38,159 bases of DNA from a virus. Lineage: Duplodnaviria > Heunggongvirae > Uroviricota > Caudoviricetes. Made by a program: the position numbers and the translations under genes. The stretch is from the IMG/VR virus record IMGVR_UViG_3300045988_123528, positions 1-38,159 of that record; one strand, written 5' to 3'. Under the pieces are notes generated by a model. The model searched no databases and was not told the DNA's origin. It saw only the letters and a list, made by a program, of their open reading frames with translations. Below, piece by piece: positions 6,814 to 36,825 of this stretch. The first letter of the stretch is position 1. Each line of letters opens with the position of its first letter.

Positions 6814-6931
6814 TTTGTTCTTTAACCTCCAGATACGGGCGTTTAATTGCCCCGCCGAACAGCTCTTTTCCGCAATAGCTGCAATGTCTTTCGCGAATCA
6901 GCCTGCGCATTCACCACAACTCTAAAAACAA

Positions 6932-6984
6932 ATGTAGGATATCCAACATGCAAGTGTCAAGAGTTTATGTTGGTTATCCTACAT
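6932..6984 (-). promoter_or_regulatory. OL/PL: two 18 bp operator palindromes flanking a leftward TTGACA -35
   Basis: ATGTAGGATATCCAACAT (6932-6949) and ATGTTGGTTATCCTACAT (6967-6984); TGTCAA at 6954-6959 is TTGACA on the minus strand. Confidence 0.65.
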
Positions 6985-7700: not shown

Positions 7701-7763
7701 GTAGGCAATCCTACCACATGCCCATGTAGGATTCTTGACATTGGCATGTTGGATATCCTACAT
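7698..7763. promoter_or_regulatory. OR region with PR (rightward) and probable PRM
   Basis: Operator copies at about 7724-7741 (ATGTAGGATTCTTGACAT, contains TTGACA -35) and 7746-7763 (ATGTTGGATATCCTACAT); a degenerate third copy overlaps the cI start. Confidence 0.6.
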
Positions 7764-7795
7764 TTCTGCTTAACGTAATTTAACGGGAGACAGAA

Positions 7796-8020: not shown

Positions 8021-8605
8021 GTGGGTAAAGAACCTGAATGGAAAGTTGATAAACAACCAGCATGGCTGGTGGCAGCAATACGAAGAACGATTGCTGATTT
8101 ACCTCATGGCTATGAGGAAGCAGCAGAAATTCTTGGTTTGTATAAATCTGATGATATCACCCCAGCAAAAGATCAATTGCATAACAGACTGCGTAGCGGT
8201 GGGGATCAAATTTTTCCACTTGAGTGGGCCATGGTTTTACAGGATGCCAGTGGTACCAGGCATGTAACAGATGCAATAGCCCGTCGTAGTAATGGGGTGT
8301 TTGTGCCGCTGGTGGTCATTGATGACATTGACAATGGTGACATTAATCAGCGGCTGATGGAGTCAATAGAATGGATTGGCAAGCATTCCCAGTACTTACG
8401 CAAGGCAACTGCTGATGGAGTTATTGACCAGGCTGAGCGTGAGCAAATCGAAGAGAACAGCTACCAAGTAATGGCGAAGTGGCAGGAGCATTTAACACTG
8501 TTATTTCGTGTTTTTTGTGCGCCGGAAAAGAGTAACGCCCGCGAGTGTGCAGCTCCGGGCGTCGTGGCGTCGATTGCTTCTGGTTGTGGAGAAACTAACG
8601 CATGA
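8021..8605 (+). CDS. Putative early regulatory protein (CII/YdaT-like position)
   Basis: 194 aa directly downstream of cro; family assignment uncertain. Confidence 0.4.
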
Positions 8606-8940
8606 ACAGTTTAACAACACACTACCGTCGCTCGCAACTGATTGCACTTCCTGTACCGGGTGGAAAAGCGAAGGTGGAGTATTGCTATGCAGTGAATGTA
8701 CCAGGTGACAGGGAAATTGTAACCCACAGCTTTGCAGAGTGGGCTGTGGGTGATTTCAACCGGCAGAAGGAGACAGTCCTTTGCGACAAGTTAACCGCTG
8801 GTTCAAAGATCACTACGGAGTGCCCGTCAGAGTCATTCGTTGGGAGCCGGAAACACAACGGGTTATCTACCTCCGTGAAGGCTATGAACATGAATGCTTC
8901 AGTCCGGTCGAACAGTTTCGTCGTAAATTCAGGGAAATAG
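8602..8940 (+). CDS. Hypothetical protein, possibly the 5' part of a frameshift-split gene
   Basis: ATGA coupling to upstream gene; the C-terminal third looks non-protein-like. Confidence 0.3.
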
Positions 8941-8993
8941 AGGTCGGTCATGAGCCTGTTAATGACATCCCAGCCCATTGTGATAAATCGTGA
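8781..8993 (+). CDS. Hypothetical protein, possibly the 3' part of the same split gene
   Basis: Frame is -1 relative to 8602 ORF; TTG start with SD AAGGAG 7 nt upstream; protein-like composition. Confidence 0.35.
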
Positions 8994-9942
8994 TCTTGCA
9001 TGCCGTATTGGTCTGAATGAGGCAATTGTGTTGCAGCAGCTTCATTACTGGCTGAATGAAACGAATTCAGGCACTGAGCATGGCGGAATTCGCTGGGTTT
9101 ATAACACGACAGAACAGTGGCTGGAGCAGTTTCCGTTCTGGTCAGAGTCCACTCTGAAACGCACATTTGCAAGCCTGAAATCACTTGGGGTTTTGCGTCG
9201 CGAGCAACTCAATAAATCGAAGCGTGACATGACCAACTTCTACACGATCAACTATGAAAGTGAGCTTTTAGAAGAGGTCAAAGTGAACGAATCCATCAGG
9301 TCAAAATGCACTTCTCCATCTGGTCAAAGTGACCTGATGGATGGGCGCAAAATGACACGATCCATTGGTTCAAAACGACACGCTGTCATCGGGTCAAAAT
9401 GGCCCAATGATCTTACAGAGAATACAACAGAGATTACTACAGAGAATAAAACCTCTTCTCGTCCGGACGCTTCGCAACCGGACACGCAAACGGCTGAACA
9501 GGAGTTTTTAACTCGCCATCCTGATGCGGTTGTATTCAGCCCTAAAAAGCGCCAGTGGGGAACGCAGGATGATTTGACCTGCGCACAGTGGCTCTGGAAA
9601 AAAATCATCGCCCTGTACGAGCAAGCCGCCGAATGTGACGGCGAGGTGGTTCGTCCCAAAGAACCGAACTGGACAGCCTGGGCAAACGAAATTCGCCTGA
9701 TGTGTGTGCAGGATGGTCGTACTCACAAACAAATCTGCGAGATGTACAGCCGCGTCAGCCGCGATCCGTTCTGGTGCCGTAACGTGCTCAGCCCGTCGAA
9801 GCTGCGGGAAAAATGGGATGAGCTTTCCCTGCGCTTATCGCCGTCCGTAAGCACGTACACCGAAAAACGCGAAGACCCGTACTTCAAATCCAGTTACGAC
9901 AACGTGGACTACAGCCAGATCCCGGCAGGATTCAGGGGGTGA
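8950..9942 (+). CDS. Replication initiator (O-like) with central iteron-encoding linker and DnaT-like C-terminal domain
   Basis: 330 aa; iterons inside the gene; C-terminal domain resembles DnaT-type primosomal domains (recognition-based). Confidence 0.65.
   Translation: MSLLMTSQPIVINRDLACRIGLNEAIVLQQLHYWLNETNSGTEHGGIRWVYNTTEQWLEQFPFWSESTLKRTFASLKSLGVLRREQLNKSKRDMTNFYTINYESELLEEVKVNESIRSKCTSPSGQSDLMDGRKMTRSIGSKRHAVIGSKWPNDLTENTTEITTENKTSSRPDASQPDTQTAEQEFLTRHPDAVVFSPKKRQWGTQDDLTCAQWLWKKIIALYEQAAECDGEVVRPKEPNWTAWANEIRLMCVQDGRTHKQICEMYSRVSRDPFWCRNVLSPSKLREKWDELSLRLSPSVSTYTEKREDPYFKSSYDNVDYSQIPAGFRG
9271..9470. repeat. Putative replication origin: five GGTCAAA(A/G)TG-type iterons plus AT-rich repeat tract
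   Basis: Iteron cores at about 9276, 9299, 9322, 9367, 9391 (mostly 23 bp spacing), then ACAGAGA-rich AT tract. Confidence 0.6.
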
Positions 9943-10433
9943 TCATGAGTCTGTTAAATGACGTTCAGAAATTCATTGAAGCCCATCCGGGGTGTACTTC
10001 CGGAGACATTGCGGATGCTTTTGCAGGTTACTCACGGCAGCGCGTTCTGCAGTCAGCAAGCAAGTTACGTCAGAGTGGGCGTGTGGCTCACCGTTGTGAA
10101 GGAGATACACGCAGACATTTCCCACGCCTGACTGAGAGAGCGCAGGAGCCGGAACCACAACCAGTTCGTGAAACCAGACCTGTGCGCAATTTCTATGTCG
10201 GCACTAACGATCCCCGGGTGATTTTGTGCCTGACCCGCCAGGCGGAAGAACTGGAGTCCAGGGGCTTATACCGTCGTGCTGCAACGGTGTGGATGGCGGC
10301 ATTCCGTGAAAGCCACTCCCAGCCAGAACGAAACAATTTTCTGGCGCGTCGTGAGCAGTGTTTACGGAAAAGCAGCAAGCGCGCTGTATCGGGTGATGAG
10401 TGGTATCTGTCAGGGAATTACGTGGGGGCTTAA
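9939..10433 (+). CDS. PerC-like (Pch-like) regulator
   Basis: ELESRGLYRRAATVWMAAF recalled as the PerC-family signature; family call unverified. Confidence 0.4.
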   Translation: MIMSLLNDVQKFIEAHPGCTSGDIADAFAGYSRQRVLQSASKLRQSGRVAHRCEGDTRRHFPRLTERAQEPEPQPVRETRPVRNFYVGTNDPRVILCLTRQAEELESRGLYRRAATVWMAAFRESHSQPERNNFLARREQCLRKSSKRAVSGDEWYLSGNYVGA

Positions 10434-11086
10434 TGAGTAATAAATATTGCCAGGAGTTGGTGGAACTGCGGAACAAACCAGCCCATGAACTGAAGGAAGT
10501 GGGTGATCAGTGGCGCACGCCGGACAACATTTTCTGGGGAATTAACACCCTGTTTGGCCCGTTTGTTCTGGATCTGTTCACTGACGGTGATAACGCCAAA
10601 TGTGCTGCGTATTACACGGCGGAAGACAACGCGCTGGCGCATGACTGGTCAGAACGTCTTGCGGAGCTTAAAGGGGCTGCCTTTGGTAATCCCCCATACA
10701 GCCGCGCCAGTCAGCATGAGGGGCAATACATCACCGGCATGCGTTACATCATGAAACATGCCAGTGCCATGCGTGATAAGGGTGGGCGCTATGTTTTCCT
10801 GATCAAAGCTGCCACCAGCGAAGTGTGGTGGCCGGAAGATGCGGACCATATTGCTTTTATTCGCGGGCGTATTGGTTTTGAACTGCCTGCCTGGTTTATC
10901 CCGAAGGATGAGAAGCAGGTGCCGACAGGCGCTTTCTTCGCTGGTGCTATTGCTGTTTTCGACAAGACCTGGAAGGGACCGGCAATTAGCTACATCGGGC
11001 GCGATGAACTTGAGGCATGTGGTGAGGCGTTTCTGGCGCAGGTTCGCCAGCAGGCGGAAAAACTGGTCAGGGAGATGGCGGCATGA
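10433..11086 (+). CDS. Phage DNA N6-adenine methyltransferase (orphan, Dam-like)
   Basis: WRTPDNIF...DLFTDGDN...AFGNPPYS motifs; start ATG overlaps upstream stop. Confidence 0.75.
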   Translation: MSNKYCQELVELRNKPAHELKEVGDQWRTPDNIFWGINTLFGPFVLDLFTDGDNAKCAAYYTAEDNALAHDWSERLAELKGAAFGNPPYSRASQHEGQYITGMRYIMKHASAMRDKGGRYVFLIKAATSEVWWPEDADHIAFIRGRIGFELPAWFIPKDEKQVPTGAFFAGAIAVFDKTWKGPAISYIGRDELEACGEAFLAQVRQQAEKLVREMAA

Positions 11087-11409
11087 CGACGTTAACTCAA
11101 TGCCAGCAGCAGGTGCTGGATATGCTGATTTCTTACCAGCAAGAACGTGGCTTCCCGCCAACTAATCAGGAGGTGGCAACCATGCTGGGATACCGTTCAG
11201 TGAATGCAGCGGTGGAGCATCTTCGCGCACTGGAGAAAAAAGGCGTCATCACGATAAAGCGTGGCGTGGCCCGGGGGATAACGCTTCATACCGCGGTGAA
11301 GGACGACGACAGCGAGGCGGTCGGGATTATCCGCGCACTGCTTGCCGGTGAGGAAAACGCAAGGCTGCGTGCAACCCACTGGTTACATGAGAGGGACCTG
11401 AAAGTATGA
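11083..11409 (+). CDS. LexA N-terminal DNA-binding-domain-like protein lacking the S24 peptidase domain
   Basis: 108 aa; QQVLDMLISYQQERGFPPTNQEVATMLGYRSVNAAVEHLRALEKKGVI closely parallels the LexA DNA-binding domain; no Ala-Gly/Ser-Lys module. Confidence 0.6.
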   Translation: MTTLTQCQQQVLDMLISYQQERGFPPTNQEVATMLGYRSVNAAVEHLRALEKKGVITIKRGVARGITLHTAVKDDDSEAVGIIRALLAGEENARLRATHWLHERDLKV

Positions 11410-11795
11410 AGCTGATCCTGCCTTTTCCGCCCAGCGTGAACACGTACTGGAGACACCCCAACAAAGGGGCGTTTGCTGGTAAGAGCCTGATAAGCGCGGC
11501 GGGGCGAAAATTCCAGAGCGCGGCGTGCGCAGCAATAGTTGAGCAGTTACGTCGTCTGCCGAAACCAACGTCGGCACCTGCTTCAGTGGAGATCGTGTTA
11601 TTTCCTCCGGATAACCGGATCCGCGATCTGGACAACTATAACAAGGCGCTGTTTGACGCCCTGACCCACGCGGGTGTGTGGGAAGACGACAGTCAGGTGA
11701 AAAGAATGCTGGTGGAGTGGGGACCGGTTATCCCGGAAGGGAAGGTCGAGATCACTATCAGTAAGTACGAGAAAACGGCGGGTGCAGCCGCCTGA
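11406..11795 (+). CDS. rusA: RusA Holliday junction resolvase
   Basis: 129 aa; LPFPPSVNTYWRH and RDLDNYNKALFDALT match RusA signatures. Confidence 0.85.
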   Translation: MKLILPFPPSVNTYWRHPNKGAFAGKSLISAAGRKFQSAACAAIVEQLRRLPKPTSAPASVEIVLFPPDNRIRDLDNYNKALFDALTHAGVWEDDSQVKRMLVEWGPVIPEGKVEITISKYEKTAGAAA

Positions 11796-11814
11796 TCAAG
11801 AGGAGAAACGAAGT

Positions 11815-12624
11815 ATGAATAATCTGATGGTCATTGATGGTATTGAAGTTCGTCGTGATGCTTATGGGCGTTACAGCCTGAACGATCTGCATCGCGCAGC
11901 AGTAGCATCTGGTGCAAATGCCAGAACCAAGGAGCCGGGGAAGTTTCTTTCCAGCCAACAAACTGTTGAGCTTGTTCATGAATTGACCAACACCCAGAAT
12001 TTGGGTGTTGACCCGGTGAGTGTGATTCATGGGGGAAATGAACGGGGAACTTATGTCTGCAAGGAACTGGTGTATGCCTATGCAATGTGGATCAGCCCGT
12101 CATTCCATCTGAAGGTGATCCGTACTTTCGATATGGTAACCAGCGCACCGGAAAAATTATCCGGACAGGCTGCTGACAAGATGCAGGCTGGTGTGATTCT
12201 GCTGGACTTTATGCGCCGGGAGTTAAACCTGTCTAACTCTTCAGTGCTTGGTGCCTGTCAGAAACTCCAGGAGGCTGTTGGCTTACCGAATCTGGCACCG
12301 CGCTATGCCATTGATGCTCCTGCTGATGCACACGATGGCTCAAGTCGCCCGACACTGTCACTGAGTGCACTGCTGAAACAGTATGGTATCCGCCTGACGG
12401 CTAATCAGGCATATCACCAGATGGTGAAGCTGGGGATCGTCGAGCAGCGCGAACGATACAGCCGTACCGCGATTAACAACATCAAAAAATTCTGGTCGCT
12501 GACAGCGAAAGGCTGCATGTTCGGCAAGAACATCACCAGTCCCGCAAATCCGCGTGAGACGCAGCCGCATTTCTTCGAATCCCGATTCCCTGAGCTGTTA
12601 AAGCTGCTCGATACCGTTCATTGA
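11815..12624 (+). CDS. KilA-N domain protein with antirepressor-like C-terminal domain
   Basis: KilA-N motifs (YVCKELVYAYAMWISPSFHLKVIRTFD); SD GAGGAG upstream of this ATG. Confidence 0.65.
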   Translation: MNNLMVIDGIEVRRDAYGRYSLNDLHRAAVASGANARTKEPGKFLSSQQTVELVHELTNTQNLGVDPVSVIHGGNERGTYVCKELVYAYAMWISPSFHLKVIRTFDMVTSAPEKLSGQAADKMQAGVILLDFMRRELNLSNSSVLGACQKLQEAVGLPNLAPRYAIDAPADAHDGSSRPTLSLSALLKQYGIRLTANQAYHQMVKLGIVEQRERYSRTAINNIKKFWSLTAKGCMFGKNITSPANPRETQPHFFESRFPELLKLLDTVH

Positions 12625-12625
12625 G

Positions 12626-13621
12626 GTGACTGTGAGAGCACTACTGACCCCTGAAATTGCCCCGCGTATGGGGATCGTATTGTTCAGACCAGGTTCAGAG
12701 CTGATGCCCCTGTTTATGCAGGGGCGTGTCCTGCTGGAGCCTGAGCCGGAACGTTATTCATCTTTCGCCAGTGGTGCCGTTCCGGCGGCATCACAACCGC
12801 TGGCGGATGATCCTGCCGTTCGGGCCGTGTTCCGCAATGAGGCAGTGATCCGTCGTGCTGGTGGAGTGGAATGTCTTGAAAGCTGGTTACTTCGTGAAAA
12901 AGGCTGCCAGTGGCCTCATTCCGACTGGCACAGCGAGAACATGACCACAATGCGACACGCTCCGGGTGCAATCCGTCTGTGCTGGCACTGCGATAACCAG
13001 CTGCGCGATCAGTTCACGGAACGGCTGGAATCAATGGCAACGGATAACTGTGCCCGCTGGGTGTTATCTGTTGTGCGCCGTGATCTCGGTTTTGATGATA
13101 GTCACGTTGTGACAATGCCGGAACTGTGCTGGTGGCTGGTTCGTAATGACCTGGCTGATGCCTTACCGGAAAGTGCAGCCCGTAAGGCACTGAGATTACC
13201 GAAGCCTGTTGTGCCGTCTGTCACCCGGGAGAGTGACCTTGTTCCTTCGGTTCCTGCCACCAGCATTATCCAGGATAAAGCGAAAAAGGTGCTGGCGCTG
13301 AAAGTGGATCCAGAGTCGCCGGAGTCTTTTATGTTACGCCCAAAACGTCGCCGCTGGGTTAATGAAAAGTACACGCGCTGGGTTAAGACACAGCCGTGTG
13401 CATGTTGTGGAAAGCCTGCTGATGATCCCCATCACCTGATAGGCCACGGTCAGGGTGGAATGGGTACAAAAGCGCATGACCTCTTTGTGTTGCCTTTGTG
13501 CAGAAAGCATCACGACGAGCTGCATGCGGATACCGTGGCATTTGAAGAGATGTATGGTTCCCAGCTGGAGCTGATATTTCGTTTTATCGATCGTGCGCTG
13601 GCAATAGGCGTACTGGCGTAA
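12626..13621 (+). CDS. DUF968-family protein with C-terminal Cys/His cluster
   Basis: 331 aa; CACCGKPADDPHH...LCRKHHDELH; GTG start, exact start uncertain. Confidence 0.5.
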   Translation: MTVRALLTPEIAPRMGIVLFRPGSELMPLFMQGRVLLEPEPERYSSFASGAVPAASQPLADDPAVRAVFRNEAVIRRAGGVECLESWLLREKGCQWPHSDWHSENMTTMRHAPGAIRLCWHCDNQLRDQFTERLESMATDNCARWVLSVVRRDLGFDDSHVVTMPELCWWLVRNDLADALPESAARKALRLPKPVVPSVTRESDLVPSVPATSIIQDKAKKVLALKVDPESPESFMLRPKRRRWVNEKYTRWVKTQPCACCGKPADDPHHLIGHGQGGMGTKAHDLFVLPLCRKHHDELHADTVAFEEMYGSQLELIFRFIDRALAIGVLA

Positions 13622-35091: not shown

Positions 35092-35118
35092 AAACGCCCC
35101 TTATGGGGCGTATTTTGC
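35092..35118. terminator. Bidirectional terminator between tail genes and the acyltransferase
   Basis: ACGCCCC TTAT GGGGCGT hairpin plus T-run; overlaps the acyltransferase stop. Confidence 0.7.
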
Positions 35119-36270
35119 TGCTTGCACGTTATTCTTTGGAAGAATTTTATTTGATAAATAATTGGAAAATTTTATCGCGTTATCATCAATTAGCAATTTA
35201 AAAATTAAAGCTGCAAGTATTGAAGATAATAAAGTGATTGGGAAAGTAATAAGTAAAGACTTTCCGTATGAAACTCCTGCATCACCAAGCTTAATTACGA
35301 TCAAAGAAGATATTGAAGCTATTAATGGAAAATGCACCAGATAAAGAGAGTATGATACATCTCCAAGAAATTTACAGGTTTTTGTTTTGAATAAATTTGA
35401 GATAACTATTGATTTATCAATTGCTATAATAAGAAACATTGAACCAAAGGCTTGAGAAACAATTCTCAAATCAAAGTAAGTTATGTCACTGTTATTTATC
35501 CAGATACTATGTTCAGTTATAAAATATGGGTATGAACCTAGGTAACATCCTAGTAAAATAAACATAAAGATAATTGTGGTATTAATTTTCTTTATATTAA
35601 CTGAAACATCTGCACAAATCACCCCTAATATAAATCCTATTAGATGACTTGAGCTAAATACCACAATACCTAAAGTATAAAAAGCAAACCTAATTCTGGT
35701 AGTGCAAACTAGTGGGACCAGAACGAGTACAAGAATTGAGCCAACCAATTCGGTGTGAATGGTCCATAATACTGGGTTTAATGTTTGAACTCCGTAAAAA
35801 TATGTACCAATACCCCCTTCCCATACCGCATTCAGTAATGTCATTGTAGTTGGCATCGCTGGGATTACTTGTGATAAAGAGTACACTGCAGTTTCTGATG
35901 AATGAAATCCAATCGTTGTCATCAGAATAAAGGAAAATATAGTAGATGCAATGGTAGGTATTGCAAGACGTGGGTATCTCTTGATAATGGATTTAGAGTA
36001 CCATTCTAGCCCCTTCCCTTTGAAAAAGGGAATCGATAGAACCATTCCACTCAAAACGAAGAAAAGCATTACGGCAAAGTGACCATTATATAATATATTA
36101 AATGGAGTTTCACTTATGTATTTCTCTCCATAATGATCTATCTGATTTTGAACAAAAACAGATGGTAGAAAGAATTGCATGAAATGGCTTATTAAAACTA
36201 TCAAGCAAGCTATACCACGAATACCATCCAGTGCGTGATCTCGGGAAGGCGTCGTTAATTGTTGAACCAT
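35101..36270 (-). CDS. Acyltransferase family 3 integral membrane protein (OafA/Oac-like)
   Basis: LDGIRGIACLIVLISHF N-terminal motif and many TM segments; AT-rich relative to the rest of the prophage; SD GAGGA before this ATG. Confidence 0.8.
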   Translation of the reverse strand: MVQQLTTPSRDHALDGIRGIACLIVLISHFMQFFLPSVFVQNQIDHYGEKYISETPFNILYNGHFAVMLFFVLSGMVLSIPFFKGKGLEWYSKSIIKRYPRLAIPTIASTIFSFILMTTIGFHSSETAVYSLSQVIPAMPTTMTLLNAVWEGGIGTYFYGVQTLNPVLWTIHTELVGSILVLVLVPLVCTTRIRFAFYTLGIVVFSSSHLIGFILGVICADVSVNIKKINTTIIFMFILLGCYLGSYPYFITEHSIWINNSDITYFDLRIVSQAFGSMFLIIAIDKSIVISNLFKTKTCKFLGDVSYSLYLVHFPLIASISSLIVIKLGDAGVSYGKSLLITFPITLLSSILAALIFKLLIDDNAIKFSNYLSNKILPKNNVQAAKYAP

Positions 36271-36512
36271 CAATTCCTCACACATTGTAATAAAGTATTA
36301 AAATAAAATAGTAAAAGCAGAATATACAAATACGAAAAGCGGAATTATACTTTACAAGAGTGCTTGATGCTATTGTTTTGTCGAGATTTATAATCTGATC
36401 TTCTGTAGATGTTGTCCTGGCATTGTCCAATCATGATCTATGGGCTGGCTGGCGAACTTTCGATAGTGCGAGTATTGAATGATTTCCAGCCGTTACCGAT
36501 TTTACGTGTTAA

Positions 36513-36773: not shown

Positions 36774-36825
36774 ATACTGTGTTTGTATACAGTATTATTT
36801 TTAACTGTATGGATAAACAGTGTCA
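36774..36825 (-). promoter_or_regulatory. SOS-regulated promoter with two LexA boxes
   Basis: TACTGTGTTTGTATACAGTA and AACTGTATGGATAAACAGTG (CTGT-N8-ACAG); minus-strand TTGACA-17-TAAAAT; coordinates +/-2. Confidence 0.75.

Follow-up and report, generated by a model that had tools for sequence, protein, structure and literature searches.

A truncated LexA homologue is encoded by the Bacillus tectivirus GIL01, where gp6 is 44% identical to host LexA (Fornelos et al. 2018, PMC6182141). In Gifsy phages, an operon proved by experiment to be LexA-repressed and SOS-induced carries dinI, a gene for a small antirepressor with a GUG start, and irsA (Lemire et al. 2011, PMC3121763). Gifsy induction is blocked by lexA(Ind-) (PMC3121763), and expression data have been published for Gifsy dinI homologues (PMC8072944). 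Here, a gene for a 108-residue protein built on the LexA DNA-binding domain (DBD), hereafter the LexA-DBD gene, was analysed in a stretch of 38,159 nucleotides of tailed-phage DNA (Caudoviricetes; IMG/VR record IMGVR_UViG_3300045988_123528, positions 1 to 38,159). This whole stretch is called the window; it is an SfV/mEp460-like prophage.

A LexA DNA-binding domain with no autocleavage domain attached

The first-pass annotation described a 108-residue prophage protein with an N-terminal winged helix of LexA type, and this was borne out by sequence and structure comparisons. Residues 1-65 matched the whole of the Pfam profile LexA_DNA_bind (PF01726, 65 positions) at E=2.6e-19 (69 bits against a cut-off of 23.7). 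The top sequence match in the PDB was the N-terminal domain of E. coli LexA (1lea, E=6e-16), and full-length LexA was also among the best solved-structure relatives (E about 1e-15). A monomer model was built with AlphaFold2 (AF2) on 23 homologues (mean predicted local distance difference test score, pLDDT, 77). It placed helices at residues 6-22, 28-35 and 40-52 and a beta-hairpin wing at 56-68, with the recognition helix, RSVNAAVEHLRAL, at residues 40-52. By Foldseek, 68 residues of the model, 50% identical to LexA, superposed on LexA in its DNA complex (3jso_B) with a deviation of 1.3 Å.

No Peptidase_S24 match was obtained for the protein in the Pfam search, and the chain ends at residue 108. 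The lexA equivalog profile TIGR00498 scored 70.3 bits, below its cut-off of 110.95, with the match confined to profile positions 1-91. The protein therefore lacks the catalytic Ser/Lys domain. Its match to a LexA DNA-binding domain is far beyond chance, the autocleavage domain is missing, and it is not a LexA orthologue: it has neither an S24 domain with its dyad nor a conserved cleavage site. Some depositors nonetheless name it, wrongly, 'SOS-response repressor and protease LexA'.

The first-pass statement that the protein lacks a cleavage site and a Ser/Lys dyad held for the dyad and needs qualification for the site. LLA88-G89-E in the C-terminal tail was aligned by both HMMER and MAFFT with the LexA cleavage site, VAA84-G85-E. 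In the AF2 model this dipeptide falls in a predicted helix, and homologues read LLANE, LLVGE, VERE or LSGG at the same place (AN, VG, ER, TR, SG and others for A88-G89). Since the dipeptide is replaced in homologues, it is at most a relic, and a retained LexA cleavage site at A88-G89 was rejected as a selected feature.

The same annotation called the tail short and unrelated, which does not fit its conservation to about 40% identity or its two predicted helices. The pattern E..hhR.LL....A..RA..WL is kept in homologues at 38-49% identity, and profile searches match family members over their full length with the tail included. Tail blocks within residues 81-100 reach AF2 mean pLDDT values of 86-88. 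The linker that separates the tail from the winged helix is disordered in the model and varies in length and sequence in alignments, and its residues 71-74 have pLDDT below 50.

In E. coli LexA, DNA is contacted from helix 3 by S39, N41, A42, E44 and E45 (PMC3091678). Four of these five residues (S39, N41, A42 and E45) are identical in the window protein, which is also LexA-like at H46, L47, K53 and the wing residues R64-G65. Whole-family alignments show no variation at S39 and N41, and the homologue alignment none at K53, R64, G65 and I66. Among the 49 sequences of a sister clade (described below), S39, N41, A42, H46, K53, R64 and G65 are all invariant. Judged from these alignments, the core of the LexA reading head is conserved across the family, and the window's clade is the more LexA-like.

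The window protein is a full member of the catalogued family PHROG 362 (E=6e-59; residues 1-108 aligned with positions 1-106 of a 106-position profile), which is labelled 'transcriptional repressor'; the object itself is thus not new. Identical chromosomal copies (100%) in E. coli are annotated 'LexA repressor / LexA family protein', and depositors otherwise use 'LexA family transcriptional regulator', 'LexA DNA binding domain protein' or 'LexA-like protein'. The protein is 95-99% identical to open reading frames (ORFs) of SfV, SfII, cdtI, mEp460 and Stx2a/2c phages. Of 5426 complete E. coli genomes, 2233 (41%) carry the DNA at 95-100% identity. It is also present in 51-63 deposited phage genomes, among them SfV (orf42, 'unknown'), SfII, SfIV, cdtI, mEp460, Ayreon and phages converting for Shiga toxin (Stx) types Stx2a, Stx2c and Stx2k. 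When 1.84 billion representative proteins were searched with a profile, 11,290 matches were obtained, mostly LexA proteins; among them are proteins of 105-135 residues that match from end to end, tail included. A literature search on LexA-DBD proteins of the PHROG 362 type returned inventories only, such as pham 237 in 15 Stx phages (PMC8136144), and no functional study was found.

The truncated look of the protein, and the relic of the hinge and cleavage region that HMMER aligns, would suit a decaying and functionless remnant of a captured lexA. This account is scarcely credible. In comparisons with homologues, the proportion of nonsynonymous differences (pN) was 0.21-0.42 and that of synonymous differences (pS) 0.66-0.78; with pN far below pS, the gene is under purifying selection, and strongly so. 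Length and tail are conserved across genera, and intact copies number in the thousands. The gene is placed for translational coupling on both sides: its ATG, the earliest start codon to follow a stop, shares bases with the TGA that ends the upstream Dam methylase gene (ATGA), and its own TGA overlaps the ATG of rusA. The conservation data effectively refute decay.

As a separate observation, many proteins of 140-230 residues (P0127, P0128, P0133, P0135, P0136, P0144, P0150 and P0159) each showed two distinct regions of match to the LexA-DBD profile. This suggests tandem duplication of the LexA winged helix; such single-chain pseudo-dimers would have no need of the LexA dimerisation domain.

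Links to the SOS circuitry

Four relatives at 38-41% identity share the tail and carry a short N-terminal extension (P0130, P0132 and P0138, from Enterobacter/Cedecea, Klebsiella and Salmonella, and P0140). Each of the four genes is preceded by a perfect SOS box in the intergenic region. IMG/VR was scanned with an alignment of the four, and 80 loci with 49 distinct protein sequences were recovered (L102-L181). In 68 of these 80 loci, a perfect CTGT-N8-ACAG box lies no more than 1.5 kb upstream of the LexA-DBD gene. The operon usually opens with a terminator-like hairpin, a -35 element (TTGAAC, TTGACC or TTGATC), a TATA-CTGT...ACAG box and dinI (PF06183) or, in some loci, a gene for a RecA_C fragment of 95 residues (PF21096). 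It continues with an ORF of ~75 residues (ORF75, phrog_1813), the LexA-DBD gene, an ORF of ~67 residues (ORF67, phrog_1212), RusA in some loci, and DUF968; a Q-type antiterminator follows in annotated contexts. Further loci of this kind are L010, L097, L099 and L100 (e.g., L099 515-1718). The SOS box overlaps a -10-like TATACT, and in the box alignment CTGT and ACAG are fixed while the central 8 bp and the flanks diverge. The -35/TATA-CTGT layout was taken from the alignment, and a strict promoter scan confirmed one of the four promoters read by eye. At the two sister-clade loci where the phage repressor is visible, it is a short helix-turn-helix (HTH) protein without an S24 domain.

This operon shares its frame with the Gifsy operon: terminator, SOS box, dinI, a small ORF, a variable slot, ORF67, a resolvase gene and Q. 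The two share 63% identity in DinI, and ORF67 matches STM1021.1n at 37% identity (E=1e-15). ORF75 stands in the slot of the Gifsy antirepressors but has no similarity to GftA. The variable slot holds IrsA/STM1020 (DUF1367), a protein unrelated to LexA, in Gifsy-2 and the LexA-DBD gene in the sister clade. By gene order and these similarities, the sister-clade gene occupies the irsA slot of a Gifsy-type SOS operon, which is new here. From this position in an SOS-induced operon, the protein would be made exactly when host LexA is destroyed. IrsA was also considered as a member of the LexA-DBD family and rejected: STM1020 of Gifsy-2 is a DUF1367 protein without similarity, and the operon frame alone is shared.

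Two side observations concern sister-clade loci. The first gene after the SOS box in L100 (4975-5262) encodes a 95-residue protein made up almost wholly of a RecA C-terminal domain (PF21096, E=9e-10), and relatives of this fragment occur at L118, L128, L142, L146 and L168; by analogy with DinI, it could be a modulator of the RecA filament. In a Salmonella sister-clade prophage (L097 11794-13390, minus strand), adjoining genes with AcrVA2-like (PF26125) and Cas1 (PF01867) matches lie between the late-region methylase and the lysis genes.

In the window, the two perfect SOS boxes that the first-pass annotation placed at the prophage's DinI-like gene were confirmed immediately upstream of it (Table 1). 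A pattern search for CTGT-N8-ACAG gave these two boxes in the 38-kb window against 0.42 expected by chance. The same pair occurs in mEp460 and phiSTEC1575-Stx2k, each of which carries 5-6 perfect boxes, and the mEp460 annotation calls the homologue DinI-like and places a promoter across the boxes. A boxed dinI-like gene was thus found in each complete genome examined from the window's clade, three in number (window, mEp460 and phiSTEC1575-Stx2k). SOS boxes, the dinI-like gene and the LexA-DBD gene are all present in this clade, but unlinked. The boxed dinI-like gene of the window, taken with the LexA-box dinI operon of the sister clade, ties the LexA-DBD family to the SOS circuitry.

Other perfect boxes recur in E. 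coli viral loci. A terminator-like hairpin and the box CTGTATTTATGAACAG lie just 3' of rusA in 9 of 80 such loci (L026, L047, L060, L062, L065, L070, L083, L089 and L090; e.g., L047 10767-10782). The box stands ~110 nt upstream of a KilA-N-type gene, on an insert that is absent from the window, and its position suggests that the KilA-N or antirepressor gene adjoining the LexA-like gene is LexA-controlled in those nine loci. The box CTGTAAAAATAAACAG, with 22 copies in the 80 E. coli viral loci, lies at or just before the start of the late-region DNA methylase gene downstream of Q (e.g., mEp460, L094 41023-41038; L097 10741-10756).

Candidate role as a LexA surrogate

We tentatively favour, at a likelihood somewhat short of even, the reading that the LexA-DBD protein is an uncleavable, tail-dimerised surrogate of LexA that rebinds SOS boxes. 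We infer its DNA specificity, dimerisation, repressor action and physiological target as follows. The N-terminal winged helix, with its LexA base-contact residues, would read half-sites of the CTGT type. The conserved two-helix tail may stand in for the LexA C-terminal domain as a dimerisation element, and the dimer would then occupy 16-bp SOS boxes. With no S24 domain, the surrogate could not be inactivated by activated RecA (RecA*). The window protein would be produced from the pR promoter once the cI-type repressor has been inactivated, or on infection. It would re-repress LexA-controlled promoters despite the cleavage of host LexA and the persistence of RecA*. Re-repression would fall on the phage dinI-like gene, on SOS genes of the host and on antirepressors that LexA controls in co-resident prophages; the sister-clade protein would also feed back on its own SOS-box promoter.

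Several properties of LexA are relevant to this reading. Non-cleavable LexA (lexA3 Ind-) dominantly blocks SOS. In work of 1992 attributed to Kim and Little, the isolated N-terminal fragment of LexA reportedly still bound operators, dimerising on the DNA. Once LexA has been cleaved, the N-terminal fragment ends in ...VAA, a mark for ClpXP that is absent from the LexA-DBD protein. Intact LexA dimerises through its C-terminal domain. Cleavage of LexA exposes degradation signals (PMC3159453).

The first-pass annotation proposed an uncleavable LexA mimic that might occupy SOS boxes or poison LexA dimers. What stands is a prophage-encoded LexA DNA-binding domain with its contact residues kept and its autocleavage domain missing. 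Poisoning of LexA dimers was rejected: the dimer interface of LexA lies in the C-terminal domain, this protein has no such domain with which to form heterodimers, and its tail bears no resemblance to it. A role in the lysogen, such as the proposed tuning of induction, is doubtful, as set out with the locus below.

A number of points weigh against the surrogate reading. The window protein has V44 in place of the E44 of LexA. Among the 49 sister-clade sequences, position 44 is never Glu, and position 45 is Leu in 36 and Glu in 10; with this drift at positions 44 and 45, a DNA specificity identical to that of LexA cannot be assumed. In GIL01, gp6, the one phage LexA-DBD-only protein to have been characterised, binds a palindrome of its own at -43.5 of the late promoter P3 and activates transcription (PMC6182141), a precedent that makes it unsafe to assume SOS-box binding for the window protein. 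No SOS box was found near the window LexA-DBD gene or in the pR operon, and the boxed dinI-like gene is 25 kb away. Imperfect sites were not enriched in the window, either as boxes with one mismatch (17 against 12.2 expected) or as CTGT-N2-16-ACAG pairs (5 against 6.7 expected). The AF2 model is of a monomer only (predicted template modelling score 0.51), and dimerisation through the tail is conjectural. Finally, a benefit to the phage from shutting SOS off is a matter of conjecture.

In the main rival reading, a captured LexA domain has become a phage transcription factor with its own, non-SOS operator, perhaps an activator like gp6. The gp6 site, GaCACAn nTGTGaC, is not a LexA box. Positions 44 and 45 vary (V44 in the window; L45, T45 or S45 in most sister-clade members; distant members too), and the PHROG and RefSeq label, 'transcriptional repressor', is generic. 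Set against this, S39, N41 and A42 are invariant, and E45 is kept in the window's clade. The only palindromes found in intergenic regions of the window were the cI/Cro-type operators (pL, pR) and the SOS boxes, so that no other conserved operator candidate is at hand. Late transcription is already served by the Q antiterminator, and the family stands consistently within LexA-box operons. An own operator is on this balance rather unlikely.

The surrogate reading can be widened. The protein may be the DNA-binding arm of a phage 'anti-SOS' toolkit, in which it would join DinI-like proteins and the RecA C-terminal-fragment proteins as a trans-dominant, RecA*-proof replacement for LexA. We regard this as doubtful. 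Under it, the host SOS regulon would be re-silenced during lytic growth, as would antirepressors or bacteriocins that competing mobile elements keep under LexA control. In relatives of Gifsy type, the SOS-induced antirepressor operon would gain a built-in pulse of negative feedback.

Locus, context and comparison with known systems

The features of the locus are collected in Table 1. On the plus strand, the order is cro, a CII-like gene (Phage_CP76), DUF4222, a 330-residue replication-region protein, the PerC-family gene yfdN, the Dam methylase and the LexA-like gene. These are followed by RusA, a KilA-N protein, DUF968/HNH, the Q antiterminator, and the lysis and morphogenesis genes. The repressor encoded on the minus strand combines HTH_3 and Peptidase_S24 and is thus of the cleavable cI type. 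The order of the window genes (replication genes, LexA-DBD, rusA, Q) is that of homologous PHROG 362 loci.

Table 1. Coordinates of the LexA-DBD gene, its parts and related features in the window
Feature	Position	Strand	Basis and remarks
Candidate pR promoter, TTGACA-18-TACATT	7735..7764	+	Promoter/terminator scan; would drive cro through Q
Dam-type N6-adenine methyltransferase gene	10433..11086	+	PF05869, E=9.7e-46; Prokaryotic Genome Annotation Pipeline (PGAP) annotation of identical prophage
Shine-Dalgarno-like GGGAGA	11070..11075	+	Direct sequence reading; 7 nt 5' of LexA-DBD ATG
LexA-DBD-only protein gene (PHROG 362 family)	11083..11409	+	ORF list; ATG start; 108 aa
Winged helix-turn-helix, residues 1-68	11083..11286	+	AF2 secondary structure, Foldseek, alignments
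Linker, residues 69-74	11287..11304	+	Acidic, low-confidence; HTAVKD, then DD; position of LexA hinge
Two-helix tail, residues 75-108	11305..11406	+	Helices 75-87 and 93-102; conserved
RusA Holliday-junction resolvase gene	11406..11795	+	PF05866, E=6.1e-15
DinI-family gene, 82 aa	36513..36761	-	PF06183, E=1.1e-19; downstream of both SOS boxes, beside integrase gene
Perfect SOS box 1, CTGTGTTTGTATACAG	36777..36792	.	dinI-like promoter; candidate target, binding inferred
Perfect SOS box 2, CTGTATGGATAAACAG	36805..36820	.	Candidate target, binding predicted

A consensus scan gave no plus-strand promoter match from the pR candidate to the LexA-DBD gene and no terminator-like site on that strand from about 8600 to 13000; an internal promoter for expression in the lysogen was accordingly set aside as a candidate. 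The layout is most simply read as that of a promoterless, translationally coupled member of the early-right (pR) operon. With no promoter of its own and the pR operon repressed, the product is therefore expected only after derepression or infection, which makes the idea that it tunes induction in the lysogen doubtful. Rfam gave zero matches in the window on either strand, and an RNA element was accordingly not retained as a candidate.

All ten genomic contexts of relatives that were looked up are lambdoid early-right operons. Of 10 informative contexts, which span 38-100% identity, 9 have RusA downstream, either adjacent or no more than two genes away (with a small or reverse-oriented ORF between), and in most cases the stop and start codons overlap. 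Next come DUF968 and a Q-type antiterminator. The upstream neighbour varies, being the Dam methylase, a fusion of C5 and D12 methylases, PerC or a replication protein. This variation, which extends to methylases that are unrelated to one another, does not support a C-protein-like coupling to the Dam methylase.

The recurrence of RusA downstream, and of unrelated DNA methyltransferases upstream (Dam, PF05869; PF00145+PF02086), would also be expected of a DNA-binding accessory to the recombination/repair module (RusA, DUF968/HNH, methylase), for example one that targets or modulates junction resolution. For lambda NinH, a neighbour of Rap, a comparable accessory role has been proposed. The gene order may, however, simply reflect the nin-region layout of one phage lineage, and the upstream neighbour is not constant. 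L099 and most sister-clade loci have no RusA, with DUF968 directly after ORF67. RusA is itself established as a self-sufficient homodimeric resolvase, and the fold of the LexA-DBD protein is that of a sequence-specific repressor with conserved base-contact residues. An accessory of this kind is very unlikely.

Other features of the prophage were recorded in passing. Divergent pL- and pR-like promoters with the same hexamers (TTGACA-18-TACATT) lie at 6931-6984 and 7716-7764 and are flanked by the inverted repeats ATGTAGGATATCCAACAT / ATGTTGGTTATCCTACAT and ACATGCCCATGT / ACATTGGCATGT, which are probably cI/Cro operators. An identical prophage in E. coli WP4-S18-ESBL-09 (L001 4708-9384) adjoins a truncated gene for tRNA-dihydrouridine synthase (dusA). 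Only ~4 kb separate it from lexA-dinF of the host, a proximity that probably reflects no more than where the attachment site happens to be. At the left prophage end (720-1708), a 139-residue ORF without a Pfam match overlaps the gene before it, which encodes a SocA/Panacea-domain protein (PF13274, E=2e-19); the pair looks like a PanA-type toxin-antitoxin or defence moron. On the minus strand (35101-36285), between the tail-fibre genes and the dinI-like/integrase module, a 394-residue Acyl_transf_3 protein (PF01757) is encoded; it is probably an O-antigen acetyltransferase, a moron for serotype conversion like those of the SfV/SfII group of Shigella phages.

If the LexA-DBD protein does rebind SOS boxes, a large share of the prophages of E. 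coli, Shigella, Klebsiella and Salmonella, Shiga-toxin phages among them, carry an internal SOS off-switch that would act whatever the activity of RecA. Effects would then be expected on the induction dynamics of Stx phages, on prophage cross-talk through LexA-controlled antirepressors, on SOS mutagenesis and on antibiotic persistence. Should the anti-SOS toolkit be real, the family would be a widespread and overlooked modifier of SOS mutagenesis, persistence and prophage cross-induction, present in ~40% of complete E. coli genomes. Bound elsewhere, the protein would be an ordinary small phage regulator. The link to the Gifsy-type SOS operon gives a concrete hypothesis on phage control of the SOS response.

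Compared with E. coli LexA (1LEA, 3JSO), the window protein shares the winged helix, the S-x-N-A-A-x-E-H-L recognition helix, K53, R64-G65 and an acidic hinge after residue 68. It lacks the S24 autoprotease/dimerisation domain, the conserved Ala-Gly site and the Ser119/Lys156 dyad, has Val for E44, and carries a 34-residue two-helix tail instead. Its gene belongs to a phage early operon, whereas lexA stands in the autoregulated lexA-dinF operon. Unlike a Gifsy-type member, the window gene lies in a pR operon in a prophage with a cleavable S24 repressor. The predicted functional analogues are lexA3 Ind- (G85D) and S119A, in which a LexA-type binder that RecA* cannot remove keeps SOS promoters dominantly shut. 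Those, however, are full-length host proteins with point mutations, whereas the window protein is natural, phage-borne and domain-deleted, and its LexA-like DNA specificity is a prediction.

The likeness to gp6 of GIL01 is one of plan: both proteins are phage-encoded, are in essence a LexA DNA-binding domain, would appear early after SOS derepression, and belong to phages wired to host LexA. When 50,697 phage records were searched with the window protein by tblastn (E<=1e-3), matches came from enterobacterial and a few unclassified phages and none from Bacillus. This points to independent lineages for gp6 and the window protein, as judged from that search and not from a direct comparison with the gp6 sequence. 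If the surrogate reading is right, the window protein would be a natural case of a captured regulator from which the signal-sensing domain was then removed, and would complement gp6, in which the captured domain was retargeted. The protein of GIL01, a Gram-positive tectivirus, is shorter (winged helix only) and is an activator; the E. coli phage protein has in addition a conserved tail and has kept the contact residues of host LexA.

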